A stretch of 24,073 nt of DNA from a virus (Duplodnaviria > Heunggongvirae > Uroviricota > Caudoviricetes): IMG/VR virus record IMGVR_UViG_2681813321_000026, positions 1-24,073 of that record; one strand, 5' to 3'. The notes beneath the pieces are model-generated. The model did not search any database and was not told the origin of the DNA. It saw only the letters and a list, made by a program, of their open reading frames with translations. Shown in pieces: positions 3,862 through 20,618 of this stretch. Every line of letters starts with the position of its first letter. Position 1 is the first letter of the stretch. Both the position numbers and the translations under genes were made by a program.

Positions 3862-5520
3862 TTACTGACTCAGACTGTTTATATTTTTCTGGAGTTGGTG
3901 CTTTGCCTGCATGATGCGCCAGGCCTCACTGCCTGCCGGTATCTCACGTCGTTCATCACGTTCCTGAGATAAATCAATCGTTGTTTGTGCGTTTTCAGTG
4001 ACCTTCTGAACCCGCTGGTGGCCTTTGGCAAACCGGATCAGTTTGTGTCTGATGTAGTTATTTACCTCAGGGGTAATTTCCATCGGAAAGTTACTCAGTC
4101 CGTCAGGCCACTCACCGAACTTTTCCCGGAAAGTGTGAGCACACCATCCGTCACTGACTGGACGCCCCAGCGAAGCACGCTGGCGCTGATAAAATTTGAT
4201 CTGACTCCACCAGGACTGTTTCTCTGCCTTCGTCGACTGATGCTGATTTTTACCCAGCTTATTAAGTTTGCGGCTAGTGTCAGTATCAACGTCTTCACCT
4301 CGCAGCGGCTTGTGTCCACATTTCGGGCAAACATAGACGCCTGCTGGCTTCATGTAGTGGCATTGAGGGCATTCATGTGGCAGTTTTTCGGCCCGTTCCT
4401 CAACTGCCCGGCGCGCGCTTTCCTCCATGCCGTCAGACTTACCGGGAAGCTCGTCGTACTCGATTGAATCCGGATAACCCAAACGGTGCACGGTGCCGCT
4501 GTGATCGAAGATAAGGCAGGACTCTTTACCCGGTGCGGTGCGCAGCCCACGCCCGAGAGCCTGCAACCAGCGAATTTCGCTTTTTGTTGGCCTGGCGTAG
4601 ATGATGCAACGAACGTCACTATCAAAGCCGGCCACCAGAACGCCCACACTAACGATGATTTTCGTTGCACCGGTTTCAAAGCGGTGAATGATGGTCTGGC
4701 GCTCATCTACCGGAGTGTCGGCGGTCATTACCTCAGCGTTAACACCCGCCAGGTTAAACTGGATTGTCAGATAATTGGCGTGAGCTACGTTGACGCAGAA
4801 AGCGATGGTAGGTAAATCCCGACCATTCTCCAGCCAGTTCTGTACGATGTCGCCCACCAGCGTAGAGCCGCACATGATTTCAGCCAGCTGTGTTTCGTTG
4901 TAATCGCGGCCGTACTCAAGCGAAGATGTGGTTTTAACACCTTTCAGATCCGGCTTAGTTGGCGCGTAAAATTCGTATTTACTCAGATCGCCACGCTGGA
5001 TTAACTCGCCGATGGTGGTCGGCTTAATCAGTCGGTCATAGTATTTGCCCAGGAACGGAGAAAACGGAGTACCCGACAGGCCAATCACCTTTACGCCTTT
5101 GCCGCGCAGACGTTCGATATCCTTCAGGATGCGTTTTTTACGCAGGTGCGCTTCGTCGATAATCAGCAGATCGATATTTTCAGGAAAAACACGACGAATA
5201 AGCGTGTCAGCGCTGGCAATCTGAATTTTCCGGTCCGGATCGTAGTTCGGGTGATCCGCCCAGATATAACCGATTTCATCTCCAGGTAAACCATACTGCA
5301 CGAACCGATTAGCCGTCTGACCAATCAGGATGGTGTACGGAACACAGAACAGAACACGCATACCACGGCTGACAAAACCAGCAACTATGAAGGCTGCCAG
5401 ACCCGTTTTACCGCTACCTGTTGGCGAGTAAACCATGAAGGTGTCGTTTGCCTTCCAGTCACGGCGCAACATGTTTAACGCTCGTTCCTGTGCAAAATTC
5501 GGCGTGATCGTCAGCTCCAT
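3862..5520 (-). CDS. Superfamily-2 DEAH-box helicase with C-terminal zinc ribbon (replication helicase)
   Basis: 552-aa ORF; Walker A SPTGSGKTG, motif II IIDEAH, C-terminal CPQC...CPKC. SD GGGAG 7 nt upstream of ATG at 5520. Confidence 0.85.
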   Translation of the reverse strand: MELTITPNFAQERALNMLRRDWKANDTFMVYSPTGSGKTGLAAFIVAGFVSRGMRVLFCVPYTILIGQTANRFVQYGLPGDEIGYIWADHPNYDPDRKIQIASADTLIRRVFPENIDLLIIDEAHLRKKRILKDIERLRGKGVKVIGLSGTPFSPFLGKYYDRLIKPTTIGELIQRGDLSKYEFYAPTKPDLKGVKTTSSLEYGRDYNETQLAEIMCGSTLVGDIVQNWLENGRDLPTIAFCVNVAHANYLTIQFNLAGVNAEVMTADTPVDERQTIIHRFETGATKIIVSVGVLVAGFDSDVRCIIYARPTKSEIRWLQALGRGLRTAPGKESCLIFDHSGTVHRLGYPDSIEYDELPGKSDGMEESARRAVEERAEKLPHECPQCHYMKPAGVYVCPKCGHKPLRGEDVDTDTSRKLNKLGKNQHQSTKAEKQSWWSQIKFYQRQRASLGRPVSDGWCAHTFREKFGEWPDGLSNFPMEITPEVNNYIRHKLIRFAKGHQRVQKVTENAQTTIDLSQERDERREIPAGSEAWRIMQAKHQLQKNINSLSQ

Positions 5521-5793
5521 TGTGCAGCTCCCGTGCTGATGAGATAATAATTTTGTGATGTGGTTTTCATGGATTCCCCCTCACATGGCTGGTGGCCTCC
5601 CCAAAGGCTGCCAGCCTCCCTTCTGATTCAGCTCCTCTGAAAAATCACTCTTCCAGGAAGAACCCTTTTCGTTTCTCAGCGCCTGAGCGCTTTGTACTAC
5701 CTTGCTGATACGGGCGTTTTTTTAAATTGCGCCCTTAAGACAGTGATCTACTTAACCAATGGATCTCTCCTGTTGGAAAAGACCCTATTCCTG

Positions 5794-5836
5794 CCCCAAC
5801 ACCCAATCCCCCCTTACCCCCCTTACCCTCTTCCCC
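5794..5836 (-). other. C-rich (plus) / G-rich (minus) tract with six runs of 3-6 G: potential G-quadruplex motif on the minus strand
   Basis: Plus strand ccccaacacccaatccccccttaccccccttaccctcttcccc; includes tandem ccccccTTA units. Lies in the 413-bp non-coding gap between the 102-aa ORF and the helicase gene. Confidence 0.4.
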
Positions 5837-5933
5837 ATAAAAACGTACTACTTCCCTAGTACACATGAGGAGTTGGGTCAGTTGGTTGCCAACCTGAACA
5901 GGCACCTTTAAGCCTGCTTCTGTTCGGGTACCT

Positions 5934-6242
5934 TTAAACCCGAAACAGTGAGGAGCGCGATTGCGATCCAGCCAGGGGAGGTTCGGCTGTATACCCCTGT
6001 AAAGCTCTGCCCTGATTTCTTACAAACAGGCGGAGCCTTGTGTTTGCTTCGTGCCTTGCTCTGTTCTCCTTGCGGAATGAAACAGGCTCAGCGTCAAAAG
6101 TGATTTCGTATACCTCCGCATATTTCAGGGCAACCTTCCGTCTCAGTGACGGAGGCAGCCCCTGTAACTGCTGCTGAATCCACTCTTCGTCTGCCTGGCA
6201 GTACCTAGATGGCATCTCTGTCTGAACGTAATTCTGGGACAT
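5934..6242 (-). CDS. Hypothetical protein (102 aa) in the cII/replication-initiator position
   Basis: ATG at 6242 with strong SD (GGGAGGTGA); overlaps the 3' end of the cro-like gene by 38 nt in another frame. No motif recognised. Confidence 0.55.
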   Translation of the reverse strand: MSQNYVQTEMPSRYCQADEEWIQQQLQGLPPSLRRKVALKYAEVYEITFDAEPVSFRKENRARHEANTRLRLFVRNQGRALQGYTAEPPLAGSQSRSSLFRV

Positions 6243-6492
6243 ACAAGCCCTTCACCTCCCCCGTGCGCGCTAAGCTTGGATGTGGAAAAAGCTCTGATAG
6301 GTCTGGCCGAAATTCATACGCTTGGATCTTTCCGTCGACAGCTGCAACCAATAACGGCACAAATTCTGGTGAAATCTTGTTCTTGCAGTTCAACCAATCG
6401 CAGACTGTTGACTGGGCCTTTCCGCATCGCTTGGCTAAGGCTTGCTGACTTCCAAGAATCTCAATAGCTTTCTCTATGGCTTTATGTTTCAT
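6205..6492 (-). CDS. Cro-like HTH regulator (Cro/CI-type, YdaS-like), 95 aa
   Basis: Start set to ATG at 6492 (MKHKAIEKAIEILGSQQALAKRCGKAQSTVCDW, HTH) with SD AGGAGA 7 nt upstream; ORF track start at 6543 is an upstream in-frame extension. Divergent from cI. Confidence 0.75.
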   Translation of the reverse strand: MKHKAIEKAIEILGSQQALAKRCGKAQSTVCDWLNCKNKISPEFVPLLVAAVDGKIQAYEFRPDLSELFPHPSLARTGEVKGLYVPELRSDRDAI

Positions 6493-6493
6493 A

Positions 6494-6578
6494 ATCGCAT
6501 CTCCTATTGAACGCATAATAACAACAGGAAAAGCGATATTCAACGTTAAACATAGAATATTTATCGGAAAGCCGATAA
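6494..6578. promoter_or_regulatory. OR-like divergent promoter/operator region between cro-like and cI genes
   Basis: Palindromic 14-mers ATCGCatctCCtAT (6494-6507) and ATCGGaaagCCGAT (6563-6576). Candidate minus-strand cro promoter TTGAAT-N17-TATTAT (-35 at 6543..6538, -10 at 6520..6515). Candidate plus-strand -10 TAGAAT at 6553-6558 with poor -35 (PRM-like). Confidence 0.5.
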
Positions 6579-6611
6579 ACTAGCCAAGATAGAGAGGGGA
6601 GGAAAATCGCA

Positions 6612-7304
6612 ATGACATTTTCAGAACGACTTGATTTAGCTATGCGCAACGCAAAATTTACGCAAGGTAGGCTGGCCAAAGAAGTGGGTATGGCTCAGTC
6701 CAGTGTTAATCAACTACTTAACAAAGCCAACGGTTCCAGAAAAACAGTCGAAATAGCAAAAGTTTTGGGCGTTAACCCGGAATGGCTCGCATCGGGTGTT
6801 GGCCCAATGGAAATCGTGACCTCTGCAGACTCACACCAAATACGTAACATTTCTGAAGATTGGGTTACTGATTCGTATGTCGTGGATGTTTTAGACATCA
6901 GATATAGTTGCGGACCTGGTAGTTATAACTCTGATTTTCCTGATATTGTCAGATCTATAGCGATAGAACCAGGATACGCATCAAGAGTTTTTGGCGGCAG
7001 ACCAGCATCAGCAATCAAAGCAATAAACGCCCACGGCGACAGTATGAAAGGCACAATAGACCCTGAAGACTTGGTATTTGTAGATGTATCAGTTCGCACA
7101 TTTAATGGTGATGGTATATACGCCTTTACATACTCTGGAACATCGCACATCAAAAGACTTCAAAAAATCAAAGATACTCTAACGGTGATATCTGACAACC
7201 CAGCTTACAAGGATTGGGCTATCGAACCGGAAGACTTCGAACAACTTCACATTGACGGAAAAGTAATTGTCAGTTGGCCTATGACACTACACCGTTTTGC
7301 ATAA
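6612..7304 (+). CDS. cI: CI-type prophage repressor (N-terminal XRE HTH, C-terminal S24 LexA-like peptidase domain)
   Basis: 230 aa; HTH QGRLAKEVGMAQSSVNQL; S24 catalytic motifs GDSM and downstream Lys; SD GGAGG upstream of ATG. Confidence 0.9.
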   Translation: MTFSERLDLAMRNAKFTQGRLAKEVGMAQSSVNQLLNKANGSRKTVEIAKVLGVNPEWLASGVGPMEIVTSADSHQIRNISEDWVTDSYVVDVLDIRYSCGPGSYNSDFPDIVRSIAIEPGYASRVFGGRPASAIKAINAHGDSMKGTIDPEDLVFVDVSVRTFNGDGIYAFTYSGTSHIKRLQKIKDTLTVISDNPAYKDWAIEPEDFEQLHIDGKVIVSWPMTLHRFA

Positions 7305-7322
7305 GCAAAAATCATTTAACCC

Positions 7323-7348
7323 GCCCACTCTTAAGTGGGCTTTTTTTT
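7323..7348 (+). terminator. Rho-independent terminator after cI
   Basis: Perfect 7-bp stem gcccact/agtgggc with 4-nt loop ctta followed by T8. Confidence 0.8.
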
Positions 7349-7356
7349 GGGAAAAA

Positions 7357-7398
7357 ATCGATAAACCGATTGACAGGTGAAATCGGTAAACCTATTAT
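7357..7398 (+). promoter_or_regulatory. PL-like promoter with two operator sites
   Basis: TTGACA (7370-7375), 17-nt spacer, TATTAT (7393-7398). Operator-like 14-mers ATCGAtaaaCCGAT (7357-7370, overlapping -35) and ATCGGtaaaCCtAT (7382-7395, overlapping spacer/-10), same family as the OR sites. Confidence 0.7.
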
Positions 7399-7447
7399 CT
7401 TGACATAGGTATCGAACTCACCAAAGCAATTATAGAGGATGAGAAAA

Positions 7448-7858
7448 ATGTCATCGTATATGGGATTACCAACAAATCAGCACGATGCTCTTGAGAATAT
7501 TCAGCTCTTAGTAGGGACTGGTGCACTACTGTATAGCAGCAATAACCCTGAGTTAATTGAACTTGCCAGCTCCATCCTGGCTGTAACTCAAAAATATAGC
7601 CTCACCGCGTCACGTTTATGCAAACAAAATTTAGCTATTAATTCCCAGAATCGGATTCGCACCCAACGCGAAACCTGCGGCTTAACAACCGCCGAACTCG
7701 CTAGGCTGCTCGATCTCGATGAAGAAATTATCATCCAGTGGGAGAGCGGAGAGTACGAACCAACCATCAGCATGCTTATCCCTCTGGCTAATGTTCTTGG
7801 CTGTGATCCAATGTTGTTATTGACTGATGCTTATAAACAAAATCAGGAGGAAGCATAA
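7448..7858 (+). CDS. Hypothetical protein with C-terminal XRE-family HTH (first gene of PL operon)
   Basis: Start set to ATG 7448 (SD GAGGA 8 nt upstream); track start 7439 has no spacing to the SD. C-terminal HTH LTTAELARLLDLDEEIIIQWESGEYEPTISMLIPLANVLG. Confidence 0.6.
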   Translation: MSSYMGLPTNQHDALENIQLLVGTGALLYSSNNPELIELASSILAVTQKYSLTASRLCKQNLAINSQNRIRTQRETCGLTTAELARLLDLDEEIIIQWESGEYEPTISMLIPLANVLGCDPMLLLTDAYKQNQEEA

Positions 7859-7859
7859 G

Positions 7860-8051
7860 ATGAAAATGTTCAAAGGCCTTACCAACGAACCGGAGACAAC
7901 TTTTCATCACATTGCCGTACTGCTTGAAGCGGGGTTAATCATTTCGGCTTCCGGTGATGAAGAATGTGATGAACTTTCGGATGATATCTTTTTACTGGCA
8001 CAACAATACGCCAGAAGCGCATGCGATGCATTTAAGGAGCAAAGAACATGA
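7860..8051 (+). CDS. Small acidic hypothetical protein (63 aa)
   Basis: ATG 7860 preceded by AGGAGG (9-nt spacing); track ORF 7827 is an in-frame upstream extension overlapping the previous gene. Confidence 0.55.
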   Translation: MKMFKGLTNEPETTFHHIAVLLEAGLIISASGDEECDELSDDIFLLAQQYARSACDAFKEQRT

Positions 8052-8239
8052 AAACTCCATTAAATATTCTTGAGGAAGTGGCAGCACAAATAAAAGAGAA
8101 TACATCAATGCTTGAATTTATATTTAAGAATTCGCCCGACTCAGGAGAGACAGACGATTATTTATGTTGCCTCATTCGCTCCATGAATAAAACCTGTGAA
8201 ATGGCTTACGCGTATATCGACACACTGCGCAACGAATAA
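8048..8239 (+). CDS. Small acidic hypothetical protein (63 aa)
   Basis: ATG overlaps stop of previous gene (ATGA coupling). Confidence 0.55.
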   Translation: MKTPLNILEEVAAQIKENTSMLEFIFKNSPDSGETDDYLCCLIRSMNKTCEMAYAYIDTLRNE

Positions 8240-8423
8240 AGAAAACTCAATAAACAATCACCCATAAAAACATAACGGTCTCTGGTCGGGAATTTCCACA
8301 ACCTGAAAATGGTGGTGATGCATGAAAAACAGAAGTGCTTATAAAACCGCATTATTAATGGCTAATGCAGGATACTGGTCAGTTGCAATACTGTTTCTCA
8401 GGAAAGCATACGGGAAATAACAA

Positions 8424-8783
8424 ATGACACATGAACCCATTAATACATATCGTCGCCGTATAGCTGTTGCGGCACTCCATCGAATAAAACGTAAAACAGG
8501 TGGTAATCTGCTTATTGTTGACCTTCCTGATGGGAACATTACGACCATAGAAATAACTGAACAGTTTATAAACCAGTTGCTGTTACGCTTCGAAGGTATT
8601 ACCCGTGGTGAATTGGGCCGGGTGGAGGGTGAAACCGAAATCCACACTGCATACCAGAATGCTATCGGGATTAATCAACATACTGAATACCTGACTGAAA
8701 CCGGAAAGTTAATTATAGACAACCTTTTTCAAGAGATTATTGATTACGCGAAAGAAAAATATATCAGCGGAGGAATTAACTGA
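8424..8783 (+). CDS. Hypothetical protein (119 aa)
   Basis: ORF with ATG start; stop overlaps start of next gene. No motif recognised. Confidence 0.5.
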   Translation: MTHEPINTYRRRIAVAALHRIKRKTGGNLLIVDLPDGNITTIEITEQFINQLLLRFEGITRGELGRVEGETEIHTAYQNAIGINQHTEYLTETGKLIIDNLFQEIIDYAKEKYISGGIN

Positions 8784-8998
8784 TGGCTAATTTATCCCCT
8801 GTATCTGTTGTGCACGAAAAAGTGCAGATCGTTATGACAATTGAAAATGGCCAAGTCACAGGTGTCTGCAAAGTCCGCGATGGCGAGCTGATTGCCAGCA
8901 TGGATACATTCATACGGCTGGCAGAAAGAGCGGGGTATCAGATAACAGCACCTGCTCAGGAGGAAACCGGTGGCATTAACAGCAACACGCATTCCTGA
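8783..8998 (+). CDS. Hypothetical protein (71 aa)
   Basis: ATG 8783 with GGAGGA 8 nt upstream, overlapping stop of previous gene. Confidence 0.55.
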   Translation: MANLSPVSVVHEKVQIVMTIENGQVTGVCKVRDGELIASMDTFIRLAERAGYQITAPAQEETGGINSNTHS

Positions 8999-9184
8999 GC
9001 GGATCCACCGGCAGGCATTGCAGGTCCTGTTGTTGTACCGATGCCGACGGATATTTCCGCATCGGATACAGCGCACCGGATATCTCAGTCTGAAGGTTAA
9101 CCGTCGCTGGCGGCTGTTATCGAAAGACGACGGCCGGAACTGGGAAGTAATGAGTCATGAACGTTATTCGGGAGAAATAAAGAA

Positions 9185-9577
9185 ATGATCGACAACCGCA
9201 CCGCCAGCACCATTGACCAGGCATTACAGAAACATGATACACCCGTCGGCCCGTTATTTTTTGTAACACGCCACGGAAGAACAAAAAAATGCCTCACCCG
9301 AAAAACGGCAATTCGTTACCTGGCATTCTTTATGACCACCCGCGCTTTTGAACGTTCAGGATTCCGACAACGCTATCCTGACAAGCGTTTTATCTTCAAC
9401 AGGAATGAGATATGGAAACGTGGAGAATCAACCACAGAGTATACCCGCGCACACCAGCGAACAATCAGACGACTGCGCAGACTCATCGCCAGGAAACAGT
9501 ATACAGAAAAATGGTTCAGAAAATATGACACATGGAGCGCCGGATATTACGAACTGATGGCAACAAAACCATTCTGA
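9185..9577 (+). CDS. Hypothetical basic protein (130 aa, Arg/Lys-rich C-terminus)
   Basis: ATG 9185 with GGGAGA upstream. No motif recognised. Confidence 0.5.
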   Translation: MIDNRTASTIDQALQKHDTPVGPLFFVTRHGRTKKCLTRKTAIRYLAFFMTTRAFERSGFRQRYPDKRFIFNRNEIWKRGESTTEYTRAHQRTIRRLRRLIARKQYTEKWFRKYDTWSAGYYELMATKPF

Positions 9578-9637
9578 CGTAAACGAAATTAACCATGACG
9601 CAATTAAATAAGGCAAGCCGAATACATCAGGAGGACC

Positions 9638-9826
9638 ATGAACATTTATTTCAGAATAGTTATATCACTGGCAATTATCACATGTATTTACGGATTAATC
9701 GTTCCGGCCCTCATATCAATGAAGGATACGGTAGCAGTGATTTCTGGCTTTGCTCTGGCGTGTCTGACCCCGCCCTGCATTTATGCCATTTATAAGGGTC
9801 TTTCTTTTTCTAAGGATAAAAGATGA
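9638..9826 (+). CDS. Small membrane protein (62 aa, two predicted TM helices)
   Basis: AGGAGGA upstream of ATG; two hydrophobic stretches; stop overlaps start of SPFH gene (ATGA). Confidence 0.55.
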   Translation: MNIYFRIVISLAIITCIYGLIVPALISMKDTVAVISGFALACLTPPCIYAIYKGLSFSKDKR

Positions 9827-10137
9827 AAAAATTACTTTTTGCTTTAGCCCTTGTTCTGCCGACCATTGGCCTTGTCGGTTGCGATCGCGTTGAGCCTGGT
9901 AATGTGGGCATCAAAGTAAACAAACTGGGCGACGATAAAGGCGTCGGTGAAGTGGTCGGTGTTGGGCGCTACTGGACGGGATGGAACACTGAGGTTTACA
10001 TCTTCCCGACCTTTAAGCAGATGAAGACCTACGATGATCCATTCAGTTTCCAGATGAGTGACGGTACAACCATCGGCTATCACATCGGCGTGGCCTACAA
10101 AGTTGATCCATCCAAAGTTACCACAGTCTTTCAGACC

Positions 10138-10167
<30 letters not shown>
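9823..10167 (+). pseudogene. Truncated copy of SPFH/band-7 lipoprotein gene (first 105 codons, then unrelated sequence after repeat boundary at 10137)
   Basis: Identical to the first 105 codons of the 275-aa gene at 19791-20618, then diverges and terminates after 9 foreign codons. Confidence 0.75.
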
Positions 10168-13550
<3,383 letters not shown>

Positions 13551-13576
<26 letters not shown>

Positions 13577-14096
13577 TCAGCAACCCCGGTATCAGTTCAT
13601 CCAGCGCGGCTGCTTTGTTCATGGCTTTGATGATATCCCGTTTCAGGAAATCAACATGTCGGTTTTCCAGTTCCGGAAAACGCCGCTGCACCGACAGGGG
13701 GAGCCCGTCGAGAATACTGGCAATTTCACCTGCGATCCGCGACAACACGAAAGTACAGAATGCGGTTTCCACCACTTCAGCGGAGTCTCTGGCATTCTTC
13801 AGTTCCTGTGCGTCGGCCTGCGCACGCGTAAGTCGATGGCGTTCGTACTCAATAGTTCCTGGCTGGAGATCTGCCTCGCTGGCCTGCCGCAGTTCTTCAA
13901 CCTCCCGGCGCAGCTTTTCGTTCTCAATTTCAGCATCCCTTTCGGCATACCATTTTATGACGGCGGCAGAGTCATAAAGCACCTCATTACCCTTGCCACC
14001 GCCTCGCAGAACGGGCATTCCCTGTTCCTGCCAGTTCTGAATGGTACGGATACTCGCACCGAAAATGTCAGCCAGCTGCTTTTTGTTGACTTCCAT
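13551..14096 (-). CDS. nu1: Terminase small subunit (lambda Nu1, 181 aa)
   Basis: Translation MEVNKKQLADIFGASIRTIQNWQEQGMPVLRGGGKGNEVLYDSAAVIKWYAERDAE... recognised as lambda Nu1; overlaps A start as in lambda. Confidence 0.95.
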
Positions 14097-14283
14097 TGTT
14101 CATTCCACGGCCAAAAACAGAGAAAGGAAACGACAAAGGCCCAAAAGTTCGTTTTCAGCACCTGTCGTTTCCTTTCTTTTCAGGGGGTATTTTAAATAAA
14201 AACATTAAGTTACGACGAAGAAGAACGGAAACGCCTTAAACCGGAAAATTTTCATAAATAGCGAAAACCCGCGAGGTCGCCGC

Positions 14284-14295
14284 CCCGTAGCCTGC
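14284..14295 (-). other. cosN cohesive-end site (12-nt GGGCGGCGACCT on minus strand); cosB lies between here and Nu1
   Basis: Plus strand aggtcgccgccc at 14284-14295 is the reverse complement of the lambda left cohesive end; the following 190 bp toward Nu1 matches the lambda left end from memory with a few substitutions. Confidence 0.85.
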
Positions 14296-14522
14296 CGGAT
14301 CGCCGGAAAGGACCCAATAAATGATAATAATTATCATTTATATAAATACCATCACACATCCCACGTACACCATAAAACCACGACAAATAATCAATTTTGT
14401 CCAAGTCATGCATTAATTGATCTGTGTCAACTTAACGTAAAGACATCTTAAGACAATACAAATCAGCAGCACTGAACACGGAAAAACACAATGTCATCAA
14501 AAAATAAAGCTTCCCAAACCAG

Positions 14523-14663
14523 ATGATTAATCAAATCCATATTGCCCTTGAACGTAAGGGATCGGGTAATTTTTCGGCATGGGTTATTGAAGCCTGCAGG
14601 AGAAGGCTGGCAACAGATGCAAAGCACCTGCGCCCGGCCAGCATGAAAAATAACGAGAAATGA
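14523..14663 (+). CDS. Small hypothetical protein (46 aa) in the cos-proximal right-end region
   Basis: ORF MINQIHIALERKGSGNFSAWVIEACRRRL...; resembles from memory the last small ORF before cos in lambda. An upstream ATG at 14491 is out of frame. Below track size cutoff. Confidence 0.3.
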   Translation: MINQIHIALERKGSGNFSAWVIEACRRRLATDAKHLRPASMKNNEK

Positions 14664-14795
14664 ACGTTCGGTTACAGGAACCGGTAGCTACTGTCTTCTA
14701 ACAATATTTCATCTTCATATCCGGCGAAACAAGACTTTACCCTGCAGGGATGTACTGAATAGCAACAGAGTGATAATTAACTTCTGATAAAATAA

Positions 14796-15122
14796 TCAGG
14801 GTGCTGAAGGACTAAAGATAAATGTTTTCTTCACGCCTTTACGCGGCTTGTCCTTCTCAAATCGCCATTTTGCCATCGCCTTTACAACCTGCTCATCAAA
14901 CAGATGGTGCGGCTCTGAACGGATAAACTCAATTCGGGTGACAGTACCATCAGCACCAATATCAAACTTCACATCAACCCGTCCCTTTATATAATTTGCC
15001 GCGGCATAGGCCGGATATTGTGGTAATGCCTTAACCAACTGTCGAGGCATATCTGTTTTATGTTGCGTACAGCCCATAACCAAAGAAGACAACAAAATAA
15101 TTAACGGAAGATTTCTTTTCAT
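14796..15122 (-). CDS. Lipoprotein consisting of a TonB C-terminal-like domain (about 108 aa)
   Basis: Signal peptide MKRNLPLIILLSSLVMGC with lipobox-like VMGC; mature region PQYPAYAAANYIKGRVDVKFDIGADGTVTRIEFIRSEPHHLFDEQVVKAMAKWRFEKDKP aligns closely with E. coli TonB C-terminal domain (PQYPARAQALRIEGQVKVKFDV...AMRRWRYEPGKP) from memory. Alternative upstream ATG at 15137 has no SD. Confidence 0.75.
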   Translation of the reverse strand: MKRNLPLIILLSSLVMGCTQHKTDMPRQLVKALPQYPAYAAANYIKGRVDVKFDIGADGTVTRIEFIRSEPHHLFDEQVVKAMAKWRFEKDKPRKGVKKTFIFSPSAP

Positions 15123-15138
15123 TTTTATTCCCGGCATA

Positions 15139-15158
15139 GATAAGAATAAGTCTTATTC
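15139..15158. promoter_or_regulatory. AT-rich perfect palindrome (GAATAAG-T-CTTATTC preceded by GATAA) overlapping the putative promoter of the TonB-like gene
   Basis: 7-1-7 perfect inverted repeat at 15144-15158; overlaps a minus-strand TAGAAT -10-like hexamer; partial resemblance to Fur-box GATAAT hexamers. Confidence 0.3.
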
Positions 15159-15761
15159 TAACAATGCAGCCCTGTCGGTCATCAATCCTCTGCTTAATGG
15201 CAATGACAATTATCCGACTTAAATCACAAATCAGACACATGACATAACAGAGTTTGCGAGGTAACACATCGTCCGGTTTCTTCCACCATCGCACCGGACC
15301 AGCGACCATGAGGGGACAACGCCGCGCTCCGTTTACGCGGTAAACCCCGGTGTGTATCGTTTTTGATTATCCCCGCACACTCTCGCAGAGGAGTCTCCCT
15401 GTCGGGCTGCGGTCTCTGTTAATGCAGGAATACGGCGACAATACCGCGCATGGATAATAAGGTCGCTCAACACACTGGCTGTAATTCAGCGGATACCATT
15501 CGGCATTTATCAGTATTCATCACACACTCAACGGTGAATTCTTCATGCGTGGCATTCACTTCATATGTTCGTGAATAACATTCAGTGCATTTACCTCTGA
15601 ACACCTCTTCAATCACTCTTCCAGGAAGAACCCTTTTCGTTTCTCAGCGCCTGAGCGCTTTGTACTACCTTGCTGATACGGGCGTTTTTTTAAATTGCGC
15701 CCTTAAGACAGTGATCTACTTAACCAATGGATCTCTCCTGTTGGAAAAGACCCTATTCCTG

Positions 15762-15804
15762 CCCCAACACCCAATCCCCCCTTACCCCCCTTACCCTCTT
15801 CCCC
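15762..15804 (-). other. Second copy of the C-rich/G-rich potential G-quadruplex tract
   Basis: Identical to 5794-5836. Confidence 0.4.
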
Positions 15805-15901
15805 ATAAAAACGTACTACTTCCCTAGTACACATGAGGAGTTGGGTCAGTTGGTTGCCAACCTGAACAGGCACCTTTAAGCCTGCTTCTGTTCGGGTACC
15901 T

Positions 15902-16210
15902 TTAAACCCGAAACAGTGAGGAGCGCGATTGCGATCCAGCCAGGGGAGGTTCGGCTGTATACCCCTGTAAAGCTCTGCCCTGATTTCTTACAAACAGGCG
16001 GAGCCTTGTGTTTGCTTCGTGCCTTGCTCTGTTCTCCTTGCGGAATGAAACAGGCTCAGCGTCAAAAGTGATTTCGTATACCTCCGCATATTTCAGGGCA
16101 ACCTTCCGTCTCAGTGACGGAGGCAGCCCCTGTAACTGCTGCTGAATCCACTCTTCGTCTGCCTGGCAGTACCTAGATGGCATCTCTGTCTGAACGTAAT
16201 TCTGGGACAT
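15902..16210 (-). CDS. Hypothetical protein (102 aa), copy 2
   Basis: Identical to 5934-6242. Confidence 0.55.
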   Translation of the reverse strand: MSQNYVQTEMPSRYCQADEEWIQQQLQGLPPSLRRKVALKYAEVYEITFDAEPVSFRKENRARHEANTRLRLFVRNQGRALQGYTAEPPLAGSQSRSSLFRV

Positions 16211-16460
16211 ACAAGCCCTTCACCTCCCCCGTGCGCGCTAAGCTTGGATGTGGAAAAAGCTCTGATAGGTCTGGCCGAAATTCATACGCTTGGATCTTTC
16301 CGTCGACAGCTGCAACCAATAACGGCACAAATTCTGGTGAAATCTTGTTCTTGCAGTTCAACCAATCGCAGACTGTTGACTGGGCCTTTCCGCATCGCTT
16401 GGCTAAGGCTTGCTGACTTCCAAGAATCTCAATAGCTTTCTCTATGGCTTTATGTTTCAT
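16173..16460 (-). CDS. Cro-like HTH regulator, copy 2
   Basis: Identical to 6205-6492. Confidence 0.75.
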   Translation of the reverse strand: MKHKAIEKAIEILGSQQALAKRCGKAQSTVCDWLNCKNKISPEFVPLLVAAVDGKIQAYEFRPDLSELFPHPSLARTGEVKGLYVPELRSDRDAI

Positions 16461-16461
16461 A

Positions 16462-16546
16462 ATCGCATCTCCTATTGAACGCATAATAACAACAGGAAAA
16501 GCGATATTCAACGTTAAACATAGAATATTTATCGGAAAGCCGATAA
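16462..16546. promoter_or_regulatory. OR-like promoter/operator region, copy 2
   Basis: Identical to 6494-6578. Confidence 0.5.
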
Positions 16547-16579
16547 ACTAGCCAAGATAGAGAGGGGAGGAAAATCGCA

Positions 16580-17272
16580 ATGACATTTTCAGAACGACTT
16601 GATTTAGCTATGCGCAACGCAAAATTTACGCAAGGTAGGCTGGCCAAAGAAGTGGGTATGGCTCAGTCCAGTGTTAATCAACTACTTAACAAAGCCAACG
16701 GTTCCAGAAAAACAGTCGAAATAGCAAAAGTTTTGGGCGTTAACCCGGAATGGCTCGCATCGGGTGTTGGCCCAATGGAAATCGTGACCTCTGCAGACTC
16801 ACACCAAATACGTAACATTTCTGAAGATTGGGTTACTGATTCGTATGTCGTGGATGTTTTAGACATCAGATATAGTTGCGGACCTGGTAGTTATAACTCT
16901 GATTTTCCTGATATTGTCAGATCTATAGCGATAGAACCAGGATACGCATCAAGAGTTTTTGGCGGCAGACCAGCATCAGCAATCAAAGCAATAAACGCCC
17001 ACGGCGACAGTATGAAAGGCACAATAGACCCTGAAGACTTGGTATTTGTAGATGTATCAGTTCGCACATTTAATGGTGATGGTATATACGCCTTTACATA
17101 CTCTGGAACATCGCACATCAAAAGACTTCAAAAAATCAAAGATACTCTAACGGTGATATCTGACAACCCAGCTTACAAGGATTGGGCTATCGAACCGGAA
17201 GACTTCGAACAACTTCACATTGACGGAAAAGTAATTGTCAGTTGGCCTATGACACTACACCGTTTTGCATAA
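16580..17272 (+). CDS. cI: CI-type prophage repressor, copy 2
   Basis: Identical to 6612-7304. Confidence 0.9.
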   Translation: MTFSERLDLAMRNAKFTQGRLAKEVGMAQSSVNQLLNKANGSRKTVEIAKVLGVNPEWLASGVGPMEIVTSADSHQIRNISEDWVTDSYVVDVLDIRYSCGPGSYNSDFPDIVRSIAIEPGYASRVFGGRPASAIKAINAHGDSMKGTIDPEDLVFVDVSVRTFNGDGIYAFTYSGTSHIKRLQKIKDTLTVISDNPAYKDWAIEPEDFEQLHIDGKVIVSWPMTLHRFA

Positions 17273-17290
17273 GCAAAAATCATTTAACCC

Positions 17291-17316
17291 GCCCACTCTT
17301 AAGTGGGCTTTTTTTT
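17291..17316 (+). terminator. Rho-independent terminator after cI, copy 2
   Basis: Identical to 7323-7348. Confidence 0.8.
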
Positions 17317-17324
17317 GGGAAAAA

Positions 17325-17366
17325 ATCGATAAACCGATTGACAGGTGAAATCGGTAAACCTATTAT
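17325..17366 (+). promoter_or_regulatory. PL-like promoter with operators, copy 2
   Basis: Identical to 7357-7398. Confidence 0.7.
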
Positions 17367-17415
17367 CTTGACATAGGTATCGAACTCACCAAAGCAATTA
17401 TAGAGGATGAGAAAA

Positions 17416-17826
17416 ATGTCATCGTATATGGGATTACCAACAAATCAGCACGATGCTCTTGAGAATATTCAGCTCTTAGTAGGGACTGGTGCACTACTGT
17501 ATAGCAGCAATAACCCTGAGTTAATTGAACTTGCCAGCTCCATCCTGGCTGTAACTCAAAAATATAGCCTCACCGCGTCACGTTTATGCAAACAAAATTT
17601 AGCTATTAATTCCCAGAATCGGATTCGCACCCAACGCGAAACCTGCGGCTTAACAACCGCCGAACTCGCTAGGCTGCTCGATCTCGATGAAGAAATTATC
17701 ATCCAGTGGGAGAGCGGAGAGTACGAACCAACCATCAGCATGCTTATCCCTCTGGCTAATGTTCTTGGCTGTGATCCAATGTTGTTATTGACTGATGCTT
17801 ATAAACAAAATCAGGAGGAAGCATAA
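17416..17826 (+). CDS. Hypothetical protein with C-terminal XRE HTH, copy 2
   Basis: Identical to 7448-7858. Confidence 0.6.
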   Translation: MSSYMGLPTNQHDALENIQLLVGTGALLYSSNNPELIELASSILAVTQKYSLTASRLCKQNLAINSQNRIRTQRETCGLTTAELARLLDLDEEIIIQWESGEYEPTISMLIPLANVLGCDPMLLLTDAYKQNQEEA

Positions 17827-17827
17827 G

Positions 17828-18019
17828 ATGAAAATGTTCAAAGGCCTTACCAACGAACCGGAGACAACTTTTCATCACATTGCCGTACTGCTTGAAGCGG
17901 GGTTAATCATTTCGGCTTCCGGTGATGAAGAATGTGATGAACTTTCGGATGATATCTTTTTACTGGCACAACAATACGCCAGAAGCGCATGCGATGCATT
18001 TAAGGAGCAAAGAACATGA
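17828..18019 (+). CDS. Small acidic hypothetical protein (63 aa), copy 2
   Basis: Identical to 7860-8051. Confidence 0.55.
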   Translation: MKMFKGLTNEPETTFHHIAVLLEAGLIISASGDEECDELSDDIFLLAQQYARSACDAFKEQRT

Positions 18020-18207
18020 AAACTCCATTAAATATTCTTGAGGAAGTGGCAGCACAAATAAAAGAGAATACATCAATGCTTGAATTTATATTTAAGAATT
18101 CGCCCGACTCAGGAGAGACAGACGATTATTTATGTTGCCTCATTCGCTCCATGAATAAAACCTGTGAAATGGCTTACGCGTATATCGACACACTGCGCAA
18201 CGAATAA
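18016..18207 (+). CDS. Small acidic hypothetical protein (63 aa), copy 2
   Basis: Identical to 8048-8239. Confidence 0.55.
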   Translation: MKTPLNILEEVAAQIKENTSMLEFIFKNSPDSGETDDYLCCLIRSMNKTCEMAYAYIDTLRNE

Positions 18208-18391
18208 AGAAAACTCAATAAACAATCACCCATAAAAACATAACGGTCTCTGGTCGGGAATTTCCACAACCTGAAAATGGTGGTGATGCATGAAAAACAG
18301 AAGTGCTTATAAAACCGCATTATTAATGGCTAATGCAGGATACTGGTCAGTTGCAATACTGTTTCTCAGGAAAGCATACGGGAAATAACAA

Positions 18392-18751
18392 ATGACACAT
18401 GAACCCATTAATACATATCGTCGCCGTATAGCTGTTGCGGCACTCCATCGAATAAAACGTAAAACAGGTGGTAATCTGCTTATTGTTGACCTTCCTGATG
18501 GGAACATTACGACCATAGAAATAACTGAACAGTTTATAAACCAGTTGCTGTTACGCTTCGAAGGTATTACCCGTGGTGAATTGGGCCGGGTGGAGGGTGA
18601 AACCGAAATCCACACTGCATACCAGAATGCTATCGGGATTAATCAACATACTGAATACCTGACTGAAACCGGAAAGTTAATTATAGACAACCTTTTTCAA
18701 GAGATTATTGATTACGCGAAAGAAAAATATATCAGCGGAGGAATTAACTGA
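18392..18751 (+). CDS. Hypothetical protein (119 aa), copy 2
   Basis: Identical to 8424-8783. Confidence 0.5.
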   Translation: MTHEPINTYRRRIAVAALHRIKRKTGGNLLIVDLPDGNITTIEITEQFINQLLLRFEGITRGELGRVEGETEIHTAYQNAIGINQHTEYLTETGKLIIDNLFQEIIDYAKEKYISGGIN

Positions 18752-18966
18752 TGGCTAATTTATCCCCTGTATCTGTTGTGCACGAAAAAGTGCAGATCGT
18801 TATGACAATTGAAAATGGCCAAGTCACAGGTGTCTGCAAAGTCCGCGATGGCGAGCTGATTGCCAGCATGGATACATTCATACGGCTGGCAGAAAGAGCG
18901 GGGTATCAGATAACAGCACCTGCTCAGGAGGAAACCGGTGGCATTAACAGCAACACGCATTCCTGA
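18751..18966 (+). CDS. Hypothetical protein (71 aa), copy 2
   Basis: Identical to 8783-8998. Confidence 0.55.
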   Translation: MANLSPVSVVHEKVQIVMTIENGQVTGVCKVRDGELIASMDTFIRLAERAGYQITAPAQEETGGINSNTHS

Positions 18967-19152
18967 GCGGATCCACCGGCAGGCATTGCAGGTCCTGTTG
19001 TTGTACCGATGCCGACGGATATTTCCGCATCGGATACAGCGCACCGGATATCTCAGTCTGAAGGTTAACCGTCGCTGGCGGCTGTTATCGAAAGACGACG
19101 GCCGGAACTGGGAAGTAATGAGTCATGAACGTTATTCGGGAGAAATAAAGAA

Positions 19153-19545
19153 ATGATCGACAACCGCACCGCCAGCACCATTGACCAGGCATTACAGAAA
19201 CATGATACACCCGTCGGCCCGTTATTTTTTGTAACACGCCACGGAAGAACAAAAAAATGCCTCACCCGAAAAACGGCAATTCGTTACCTGGCATTCTTTA
19301 TGACCACCCGCGCTTTTGAACGTTCAGGATTCCGACAACGCTATCCTGACAAGCGTTTTATCTTCAACAGGAATGAGATATGGAAACGTGGAGAATCAAC
19401 CACAGAGTATACCCGCGCACACCAGCGAACAATCAGACGACTGCGCAGACTCATCGCCAGGAAACAGTATACAGAAAAATGGTTCAGAAAATATGACACA
19501 TGGAGCGCCGGATATTACGAACTGATGGCAACAAAACCATTCTGA
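19153..19545 (+). CDS. Hypothetical basic protein (130 aa), copy 2
   Basis: Identical to 9185-9577. Confidence 0.5.
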   Translation: MIDNRTASTIDQALQKHDTPVGPLFFVTRHGRTKKCLTRKTAIRYLAFFMTTRAFERSGFRQRYPDKRFIFNRNEIWKRGESTTEYTRAHQRTIRRLRRLIARKQYTEKWFRKYDTWSAGYYELMATKPF

Positions 19546-19605
19546 CGTAAACGAAATTAACCATGACGCAATTAAATAAGGCAAGCCGAATACATCAGGA
19601 GGACC

Positions 19606-19794
19606 ATGAACATTTATTTCAGAATAGTTATATCACTGGCAATTATCACATGTATTTACGGATTAATCGTTCCGGCCCTCATATCAATGAAGGATACGGT
19701 AGCAGTGATTTCTGGCTTTGCTCTGGCGTGTCTGACCCCGCCCTGCATTTATGCCATTTATAAGGGTCTTTCTTTTTCTAAGGATAAAAGATGA
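19606..19794 (+). CDS. Small two-TM membrane protein (62 aa), copy 2
   Basis: Identical to 9638-9826. Confidence 0.55.
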   Translation: MNIYFRIVISLAIITCIYGLIVPALISMKDTVAVISGFALACLTPPCIYAIYKGLSFSKDKR

Positions 19795-20618
19795 AAAAAT
19801 TACTTTTTGCTTTAGCCCTTGTTCTGCCGACCATTGGCCTTGTCGGTTGCGATCGCGTTGAGCCTGGTAATGTGGGCATCAAAGTAAACAAACTGGGCGA
19901 CGATAAAGGCGTCGGTGAAGTGGTCGGTGTTGGGCGCTACTGGACGGGATGGAACACTGAGGTTTACATCTTCCCGACCTTTAAGCAGATGAAGACCTAC
20001 GATGATCCATTCAGTTTCCAGATGAGTGACGGTACAACCATCGGCTATCACATCGGCGTGGCCTACAAAGTTGATCCATCCAAAGTTACCACAGTCTTTC
20101 AGACCTACCGCAAAGGCGTGGACGACATTACCGACACCGACCTGCGCCAGAAGATAGCCGACGCACTCAACCGACTGGCCAGCAAAATGACCACCGACAA
20201 ATTTATCGACGGCGGCAAGTCTGAGCTGCTGGATGCAGCTCTTAAAGACATTCAGGAAGAAATGACGCCCATCGGTATTCAGGTAATGAGCCTCTCATAT
20301 GTGGGTAAGCCGGAGTACCCACCTACTGTTATCGACAGCATTAATGCCAAAGTCACGGCGAACCAGAAAACCCTGCAACGCGAGCAGGAAGTAAAACAGC
20401 GCGAAGCGGAAGCCAACATGTTGCGCGCGGAAGCTGCCGGACAGGCAGATGCGATTCGCACAAAAGCCCAGGCCGAAGCCGATGCTATTCGTTTACGCGG
20501 TGAAGCTCTGCGCCAGAACCCCGGTGTTATGGAGCTGGAAGCCATCAACAAGTGGAACGGTACACTGCCGCAATACATGACCAGCGGTGCCAACACACCA
20601 TTTATTCAGGTTAAGTAA
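19791..20618 (+). CDS. SPFH/band-7 (HflC/stomatin-like) domain lipoprotein, 275 aa
   Basis: Lipoprotein signal MKKLLFALALVLPTIGLVGC (lipobox LVGC); SPFH-like core and C-terminal Ala/Glu/Gln/Arg-rich coiled-coil segment (REQEVKQREAEANMLRAEAAGQADAIRTKAQAEADAIRLRGEAL) typical of HflC/QmcA-type proteins; SD AAGGA upstream. Confidence 0.8.
   Translation: MKKLLFALALVLPTIGLVGCDRVEPGNVGIKVNKLGDDKGVGEVVGVGRYWTGWNTEVYIFPTFKQMKTYDDPFSFQMSDGTTIGYHIGVAYKVDPSKVTTVFQTYRKGVDDITDTDLRQKIADALNRLASKMTTDKFIDGGKSELLDAALKDIQEEMTPIGIQVMSLSYVGKPEYPPTVIDSINAKVTANQKTLQREQEVKQREAEANMLRAEAAGQADAIRTKAQAEADAIRLRGEALRQNPGVMELEAINKWNGTLPQYMTSGANTPFIQVK

Follow-up and report, generated by a model that had tools for sequence, protein, structure and literature searches.

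A rare two-helix hook domain family at the head of the early-left operon in N-less lambdoid prophages

What does a lambdoid prophage that carries no N gene make first when its repressor fails? Prophages of the phiP27 type, which include many Shiga toxin phages, lack both N and the lambda-type O and P replication genes, and we know of no account of what they express first after derepression. The question is posed by a viral stretch of 24,073 nucleotides (IMG/VR record IMGVR_UViG_2681813321_000026; hereafter the window), an Escherichia coli prophage of this phiP27-like, N-less lambdoid type whose positions 6500–9900 are 99.8% identical to a prophage of strain E110019. Three small genes on the plus strand (g1, g2 and g3; 7448–8239) follow the gene for the cI repressor. 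This cassette opens the cI-repressed early-left (PL) operon as its immediate-early part, and its first two genes share a two-helix domain, the hook, which g1 carries in front of an XRE-type helix-turn-helix (HTH) domain. Our preferred reading, to which we give a probability of roughly 40%, is that the trio would encode protein binders, made immediate-early, that serve host takeover or anti-defence.

All three genes are real, conserved coding sequences. The first, g1 (7448–7858, plus strand; 136 aa), is identified by its RefSeq annotation, a Pfam HTH_3 match and its homologues; it starts at the ATG at 7448, in agreement with RefSeq and all homologues, and the longer open reading frame (ORF) from 7439 is not used. 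The second, g2 (7860–8051, plus strand; 63 aa), begins 1 nt past the g1 stop codon, and its own stop overlaps the start of g3 (8048–8239, plus strand; 63 aa) in an ATGA. Ribosome-binding sites precede each of them (AGAGGA, AGGAGG and AAGGAG, respectively), and all three products are acidic, with isoelectric points (pI) of 4.40, 4.45 and 4.50. The ratio of nonsynonymous to synonymous substitution rates (dN/dS) is ~0.09 for g2 and g3 and 0.1–0.2 for each half of g1, which indicates purifying selection. The initial annotation of this DNA had described two tightly coupled, small acidic 63-aa proteins after an HTH gene, and the coordinates, the overlap and the pI values agree with that description. 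Its statement that none of the proteins belonged to a known family stands only in part. g1 is a clear XRE/Cro-C1 HTH protein, and all three match PHROG families, namely phrog_4836 (g1), phrog_4587 (g2; E 6.5e-33) and phrog_6882 (g3; E 1.2e-40); the functions attached to these families are, as the statement would have it, unknown or loosely named. The label "CII-like regulator" of phrog_4836, for example, can be traced to no evidence, and in phage ASU11 the g1 homologue and the gene in the Cro position are both annotated "putative CII repressor."

The cassette lies behind a promoter of near-consensus sequence. Its hexamers, TTGACA and TATTAT, are 17 bp apart (7370–7398, plus strand) and match the consensus at 11 of 12 positions. 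The promoter follows the putative intrinsic terminator of the cI transcript (7323–7350, plus strand), which consists of the hairpin GCCCACTCTTAAGTGGGC and a run of eight T. The cI gene (6612–7304, plus strand) encodes a repressor with an HTH and an S24 LexA-like peptidase domain (Pfam Peptidase_S24, E 7.5e-17), its counterpart in E. coli E110019 being annotated as a LexA family regulator, and a Cro/YdaS-like gene (6205–6492, minus strand) diverges from it across a 119-bp control region. A pattern search located two OL operators of 16 bp, AATCGATAAACCGATT (7356–7371) and AATCGGTAAACCTATT (7381–7396), which overlap the -35 and -10 hexamers of the promoter. Operators of the same type recur between cI and cro (6493–6620), as AATCGCATCTCCTATT at 6493–6508, TATCGGAAAGCCGATA at 6562–6577 and AATCGCAATGACATTT at 6605–6620. 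At no more than one mismatch, the pattern AATCG-N6-CGATT occurs in the 24 kb only in front of PL and in the cI-cro region, plus the second copy of both in a long repeat described below.

Comparison with phages of differing cI types (SaltyDalty, Klebsiella phage ST16-OXA48phi5.3, phi467, Stx1_499, ASU11, the Combat2C1 prophage and the loci that we designate L090, L092 and L095) shows how the promoter is controlled. In each of them the motif before the first early-left gene is that phage's own cI-cro motif, examples being GTATCA/TGATAC, ATCAAGT, CAATAGCAA, AACAACTT and ATCGCC, and an equivalent layout of promoter and operators is present in L002–L007, L090, L092 and L095. Because its motif switches together with the cI-cro motif across cI types, the promoter is a genuine cI-controlled OL/PL. 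In the intact E110019 prophage, the annotation continues unbroken on the same strand from PL through ~15 further genes to the integrase. The near-consensus match, the operators, the comparison among cI types and the extent of the operon thus uphold the earlier proposal of an operator-controlled promoter heading a PL operon. To judge from the positions of the operators, PL would be silent in lysogens and the first promoter to fire on infection or induction.

The product of the first gene has two domains. Residues 1 to ~58 of g1 (7448–7621) are the two-helix hook domain of the g2 family and residues 68–125 (7649–7822) are an XRE/Cro-C1 HTH domain. The AlphaFold2 model of the protein has a mean predicted local distance difference test score (pLDDT) of 78.8, rising to ~90 over the hook, which is modeled as a short extended segment and two helices (11–29 and 34–76) linked by a four-residue loop. 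A five-helix HTH follows, with listed helices at 81–88, 92–100, 107–117 and 121–125. Direct BLASTP found no match between g1 and g2. Profile methods did: phrog_4587, the family of g2, also matches g1 residues 1–55 (E 1.6e-5), and hhalign aligned the g2 family with the N-terminal domain of g1 at 98.2% (E 3.9e-14, 57 columns), the alignment of g2 with that domain being gapless. On these alignments, g2 is a two-helix hook standing on its own and paralogous to the N-terminal domain of g1. The initial annotation had instead taken g2 and g3 for possible paralogues. That suggestion did not survive comparison, as BLASTP gave an E of 5.2 and the profile-profile probability was 0.09% (<1% even with enlarged families).

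Although g2 and g3 share no detectable sequence relationship, they are alike in size, charge and predicted fold. The g3 model (pLDDT 89.7) is a two-helix hairpin (helices 4–28 and 34–62) of the same dimensions as the hook. In the PDB its nearest neighbors are designed hairpins, which assemble as homo- or hetero-oligomeric bundles and are uninformative on homology. Neither g2 nor g3 has a match in Pfam, NCBIfam or PADLOC. Searches of the PDB by sequence and by Foldseek matched only the HTH of g1 and, for g3, only generic or designed hairpins; a search of BFVD returned generic phage repressors only. Word-indexed homologue searches with g2 and g3 retrieved close E. coli relatives only, and a scan of genome contigs yielded no confirmed relative. 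Even with enlarged profiles, the g2-type, g3-type and other hairpin families, including that of the hook types N4 and N6 considered below, remained unconnected. By sequence, the HTH of g1 is an unremarkable XRE-family domain, and the only database entries for the hook and the g3 hairpin are PHROGs of unknown function.

How widespread is the hook? A profile built from g2 and the g1 hook, run exhaustively against 1.84 billion cluster representatives, found it in only 41 clusters, with the consensus MKTFKGLSLxPxDAFxNIAxMIEAGxLIS..D..E..E.GD.I...A..YA.AA. The domain occurs free, in proteins of 60–90 aa; N-terminal to one, two or three XRE domains or to a cI-like HTH; and C-terminal in proteins of 121 aa. 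It was never attached to any other kind of domain among the 41 clusters, and the three proteins of the trio were found only in enterobacterial prophages. We also surveyed 88 loci with a g1-type gene, 80 of them from viral contigs and the others from annotated genomes and phages. At these loci the gene sits immediately 3' of cI, on the same strand and before the other early-left genes. It is followed by g2 and g3 at 30 of the loci, by a gene for a 121-aa protein ending in a hook at 40 and by a gene for a 66-aa hook at 9, leaving 9 where nothing was recognized.

The second and third genes are inseparable in these collections. They occur together in 30/30 viral loci and in 72/72 complete E. coli genomes (1.3% of 5,426), they keep their stop/start overlap, and in SaltyDalty and Fraca they remain neighbors at 35–47% identity. 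The trio, which the initial annotation had treated as a possible unit, is not fixed in other prophages: g2 and g3 travel as one module and the front half of g1 goes with the immunity module, and elsewhere another gene with a hook takes the place of g2 and g3. Hairpin genes also accumulate. The PL operons of L090, L093, L094, L095 and SaltyDalty open with 2–5 small hairpin genes of several families, tandem-hairpin fusions included, and such arrays occur with or without a hook-HTH gene. In SaltyDalty, L095 and L093, from which that gene is missing, the successive hairpin genes are of the g2 type, the g3 type and others.

Is g1 then a conventional DNA-binding regulator? Its C-terminal half has the fold of one. 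Pfam HTH_3 (PF01381) scores 40.7 bits over residues 70–121, where the cutoff is 23 (E 2.4e-10), and Foldseek superposes the domain on P22 C2 (3jxb), a DNA-binding domain of the P22 C2/434 type, with a root mean square deviation of 0.9 Å over 62 columns (TMt 0.87, 32% identity). The best PDB sequence match of the same domain (7649–7822) is an MBF1-like protein and not a repressor. Several features set the domain apart from P22 C2: a net charge of -8, a recognition helix that opens with D91-E92-E93 (D91 and E92 being invariant) where P22 C2 has Ser-Asn-Val, and the lack of an S24 or other C-terminal domain, with the N-terminal hook instead. Because the HTH is acidic and its recognition helix starts with Asp-Glu-Glu, DNA binding by g1 is only plausible and may be atypical or lost. 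Further, no operator is conserved before g1 across immunity types; the operator sites there are predicted by the type of cI and not by the conserved HTH of g1.

The HTH itself has been retained. It is nearly invariant among g1 homologues, which by their N-terminal domain divide into at least nine widely differing types. Synonymous divergence (dS) across the HTH reaches 1.4 while dN/dS remains 0.11–0.21, so its conservation reflects selection and not just recent exchange. Recent recombination as the only cause was rejected on these values, as was diversifying selection on the hook, which has a dN/dS of 0.1–0.2. The homologues carry the HTH either once (136–170 aa) or twice (213–243 aa). The single-HTH forms look like deletion derivatives of the two-HTH proteins (homologues P0002, P0007 and P0013), their tails (CDPMWLLTGKP...) matching the end of the second HTH in the long forms as if the repeats had recombined.

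The position of g1, the first gene after PL, could by itself suggest a functional stand-in for the N antiterminator, and a small conserved stem-loop 3' of g3 would fit such a role. The N-terminus of the protein (MSSYMGLPTNQHDALEN) has no arginine-rich motif, however, and searches of Pfam, PHROGs and NCBIfam matched it to neither N/Nun nor any other antiterminator family, so g1 is not N-like. Its fold is that of a Cro/C1-type HTH, and no plus-strand terminator was predicted between PL and position 10000. We find an antiterminator function for g1 scarcely credible. That the N position is taken by a 136-aa protein with a C-terminal XRE HTH, as the initial annotation had it, is borne out by the Pfam match, by the fold and by the lack of N-type homology.

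The union of an XRE domain with a two-helix hook has a precedent in Bacillus subtilis, where the XRE repressor SinR and its two-helix hook antagonist, SinI, associate via an intermolecular four-helix bundle (PMC3163267). A pair of this kind is the main rival to the reading of the trio as protein binders. g1 would be an early DNA-binding regulator that dimerises via its hook, and g2, possibly with g3, would form a mixed four-helix bundle that switches g1 off or re-tunes it, so as to time early-left expression or the choice between lysis and lysogeny. The likeness is considerable. In both systems an XRE HTH is joined to a two-helix domain and a neighboring gene encodes a small homologue of that domain. 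Here the two genes are adjacent and coupled, their homology is that detected by hhalign and by the PHROG cross-match, and 79 of the 88 loci have a free-hook gene after the hook-HTH gene, if the g2+g3, 121-aa and 66-aa arrangements are counted together. The fusion of the hook to several XRE types is also what would be expected of a dimerisation module. The genetics of the loci fit less well. An identical g2 protein is found behind five very different hooks (types N0, N1, N3, N4 and N6), two of which (N4 and N6) have no detectable similarity to g2, and hence the supposed g1:g2 interface does not covary. Hook arrays occur in the phages noted above that have no hook-HTH gene with which to pair, the conserved HTH has no conserved operator in its own promoter, and its acidic recognition helix leaves DNA binding uncertain. 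The domain order is reversed relative to the Sin proteins, with the hook N-terminal, the cassette is part of a phage PL operon, and no tie to the SinI domain emerged from sequence or from Pfam, as neither the g1 N-terminal domain nor g2 matched it at E values up to 1. We therefore regard a SinR/SinI-like switch as a possible but rather unlikely explanation.

The two halves of g1 also differ in their inheritance. The type of hook tracks the type of cI without exception in the 88 loci, and the hook is collinear with cI in 25/25 complete genomes that have this cI. The HTH half, g2 and g3 form a separate, widely shared block that does not follow the cI type, and homology with other prophages breaks inside g1, at approximately window position 7656. 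These patterns imply that swaps of the immunity region carry the hook along. Could it be functionally matched to its repressor? The two proteins co-diverge (cI/hook identities of 94/78, 88/52 and 66/43% in the pairs compared; Spearman 0.60), the hook diverging faster than cI. One way to picture such a match is a commitment factor, in which the hook of g1 would bind and inactivate its cognate cI after partial derepression of PL and make induction irreversible; the immunity module would then consist of cI, its operators and the hook. Coi of phage P1 provides the precedent: this small protein, whose promoter C1 represses, binds C1 1:1 (PMC8546580). The g1 hook resembles it in coming from a promoter repressed by the linked repressor, but the two are not homologous.

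Locus L095 weakens the idea of a functional match. The DNA-binding domain of its cI is 68% identical to that of the window and its operators are similar, yet its first hook shares just 21% identity with N0 and looks like a hook found beside an unrelated repressor. The link between hook and cI fails, therefore, in more distant phages. As L095 breaks the match and the hook starts ~50 bp past OL, tight linkage is the simpler cause of the covariation, and the conserved HTH-coding DNA offers a recombination junction. Moreover, the cI protein has an S24 self-cleavage domain, which makes an antirepressor unnecessary for induction. A Coi-like activity of the hook thus seems improbable.

The initial annotation also raised the alternative of a toxin-antitoxin-like or exclusion module. 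Under such a scheme, which may be widened to abortive infection, the HTH of g1 would make it the antitoxin or regulator, and g2 and g3 would be the toxins or exclusion effectors. The domain order of g1 does resemble that of MqsA-type antitoxins, which have a C-terminal XRE HTH, and the protein has weak matches to TIGR03830 (E 6e-6, far below the cutoff of that model) and to PADLOC RmrA, PDC-M64 and CapH. These matches to antitoxins and defence regulators cover the generic HTH only. None of the toxin and defence models of Pfam, NCBIfam and PADLOC recognizes g2 or g3, and acidic helical hairpins are unlike known toxins. Exclusion is unlikely for another reason: with cI repressing PL in lysogens, the genes would be off just when exclusion is needed. 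We consider this type of module very improbable and see nothing in the database matches, beyond the generic HTH, to sustain the earlier suggestion.

The PL operon of lambda points in a different direction, because most of its small proteins of known role (Ral, Gam, Kil and CIII) bind a host protein. The trio shares with these proteins the operon, the timing and the small size. It has no sequence tie or detectable fold tie to them, and phages of this type have neither N nor recognizable homologues of the four. In our preferred reading, the loss of cI, or infection, would allow PL to fire, and the three proteins would be made first and in fixed proportion via coupled translation. Hooks would act as protein-binding modules that assemble into helical bundles, since two-helix proteins of this size must bury their hydrophobic faces and hence need partners. 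The coupled production and constant co-inheritance of g2 and g3 make a bundle of the two the natural unit. As a small acidic hetero-bundle, the pair would bind and neutralize a host or competitor protein, in a task of host takeover or anti-defence comparable to those of Ral, Gam, Kil and CIII. With its hook tethered to an XRE-type domain, g1 could act early as a dimeric regulator or serve as an anchored form of the binder. None of the searches or models assigns a function, and we infer the bundles, the g2:g3 pairing, the target (both its existence and its identity) and the role in anti-defence or takeover.

Several findings argue for protein binding: the true PL position of the cassette, the hook as a discrete domain family, the arrays without a hook-HTH gene, the invariant pairing of g2 with g3, the hairpin folds, and the purifying selection on small acidic proteins. 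Arrays of diversified small acidic hairpins at the front of such an operon, with no need of an HTH partner, recall the host-directed or counter-defence proteins of other phages. Of the readings considered, this one accommodates the largest number of observations, and the initial annotation's suggestion of anti-restriction or anti-defence factors, by analogy with Ral, conflicts with none of them. The company that the genes keep is also suggestive, as accessory and counter-defence-type genes lie further down these operons, among them a gene for Lar-like restriction alleviation (L002 and L090), ORF6N and a ParE-like gene. Other results weigh against this reading. Neither sequence nor fold searches matched the trio to a known anti-defence, anti-restriction or host-targeting protein, the matches being confined to generic hairpins and HTH repressors. 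The acidity of g2 and g3 is moderate (19 and 17% Asp+Glu and net charges of -7 and -5, respectively, in 63 aa), unlike that of DNA mimics such as Ocr and ArdA, to which Pfam provides no match either. Across E. coli prophages the two proteins hardly vary, whereas genes in an arms race typically turn over. A regulator/anti-regulator pair would account more simply for the homology of g2 with the front domain of g1, and the recurrence of the hook in fusions with XRE domains of several kinds suggests a generic role, for example in dimerisation.

Anti-CRISPR (Acr) operons provide another point of reference. In these operons and in fusions of Acr proteins with their associated Aca regulators (for example AcrIIA15 and AcrIE10), small acidic proteins of narrow range and obscure ancestry are expressed at once from a strong promoter with a DNA-binding domain adjoining or fused to them (PMC10901769, PMC13530269), as in the cassette. 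The cassette differs in having no homology to any Acr or Aca and in having its HTH gene first and not last. Self-repression in the style of Aca is unsupported as well, because the inverted repeats at PL follow the type of cI while the HTH stays the same. A bolder version of the protein-binding idea is that the hook, with its FKGL motif, and the g3-type hairpin are undescribed, phage-specific binding modules arrayed as immediate-early inhibitors of host or rival-phage proteins. The g1-type proteins would then tether a hook to an XRE-like domain without classical DNA binding, to serve as adaptor or decoy and not as transcription factor. We hold this extended proposal to be doubtful.

The initial annotation placed every element of the locus correctly but missed that the whole cassette is present twice in the window. 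A direct repeat of 4.55 kb (5614–10162 and 15582–20130; 99.1% identity, offset 9968) duplicates the whole immunity region and, beyond it, the first part of the early-left operon. The second copy of the operators, PL and trio (17324–18207, plus strand) places g1 at 17416–17826, g2 at 17828–18019 and g3 at 18016–18207, with 0 nt differences in the three genes. The first copy of the repeat ends inside an SPFH gene and adjoins a lambda-like block of portal', terminase, Nu1 and TonB-like genes (~10139–15451) that is contiguous in many E. coli genomes. Neither two copies of this cI region nor these repeat junctions were found in any complete RefSeq E. coli genome. The prophage may be a tandem or a recombinant one, or the duplication may be an artefact of assembly.

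Several other features lie downstream of the trio in the early-left operon. A small stem-loop on the plus strand 3' of g3 (8276–8288; CGGTC-TCT-GGTCG, 4-bp stem) is followed by a conserved GGGAWT..CAACC motif (region 8276–8300), and among 11 diverged loci it has compensatory changes in 3/4 predicted pairs. It is not a terminator, because it has no U-run; no Rfam family matched in 5500–10200 and no boxA was identified. Next comes an unannotated ORF of 32 codons (8322–8420, plus strand; MKNRSAYKTALLMANAGYWSVAILFLRKAYGK), with its copy at 18290–18388. It is kept, as an ORF of 32–37 aa ending in LRKAYG(K/R), or in KKAYGV in L093, in all the operon variants that we compared (46 distinct upstream contexts, together with L090, L093 and L095), and a hydrophobic stretch at its center hints at a small membrane peptide. 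A 71-aa gene (8783–8998; phrog_340), weakly similar to an anti-repressor C-terminus, runs at its end into a gene with a ParE-like toxin domain (8970–9188, plus strand; Pfam ParE_like, E 3e-17), and the two may be a toxin-antitoxin pair inside the operon. The gene that follows (9185–9577, plus strand; 130 aa, phrog_1886) encodes, near its C-terminus, the only arginine-rich stretch seen in the operon (HQRTIRRLRRLIARKQ). A 62-aa membrane protein (9638–9826; phrog_1130) precedes the SPFH/band-7 lipoprotein gene (plus strand), which is truncated at the repeat junction in the first copy (9823–10167) and intact in the second (19791–20618; 275 aa).

Literature searches, including those by RefSeq accession, found no paper on these genes, and the study that types Shiga toxin phages by their replication (Eru) regions does not discuss g1–g3 (PMC8951638). 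What we describe is a lead and not a demonstrated mechanism. The analysis defines a compact and rare domain family that heads the early-left operon and is found free, arrayed or fused to XRE domains. Hooks that inhibit host defence or host machinery would amount to a new kind of counter-measure family in phages; hooks that instead act like SinI would add a new layer to the lysis-lysogeny switch that controls the induction of toxin phages.

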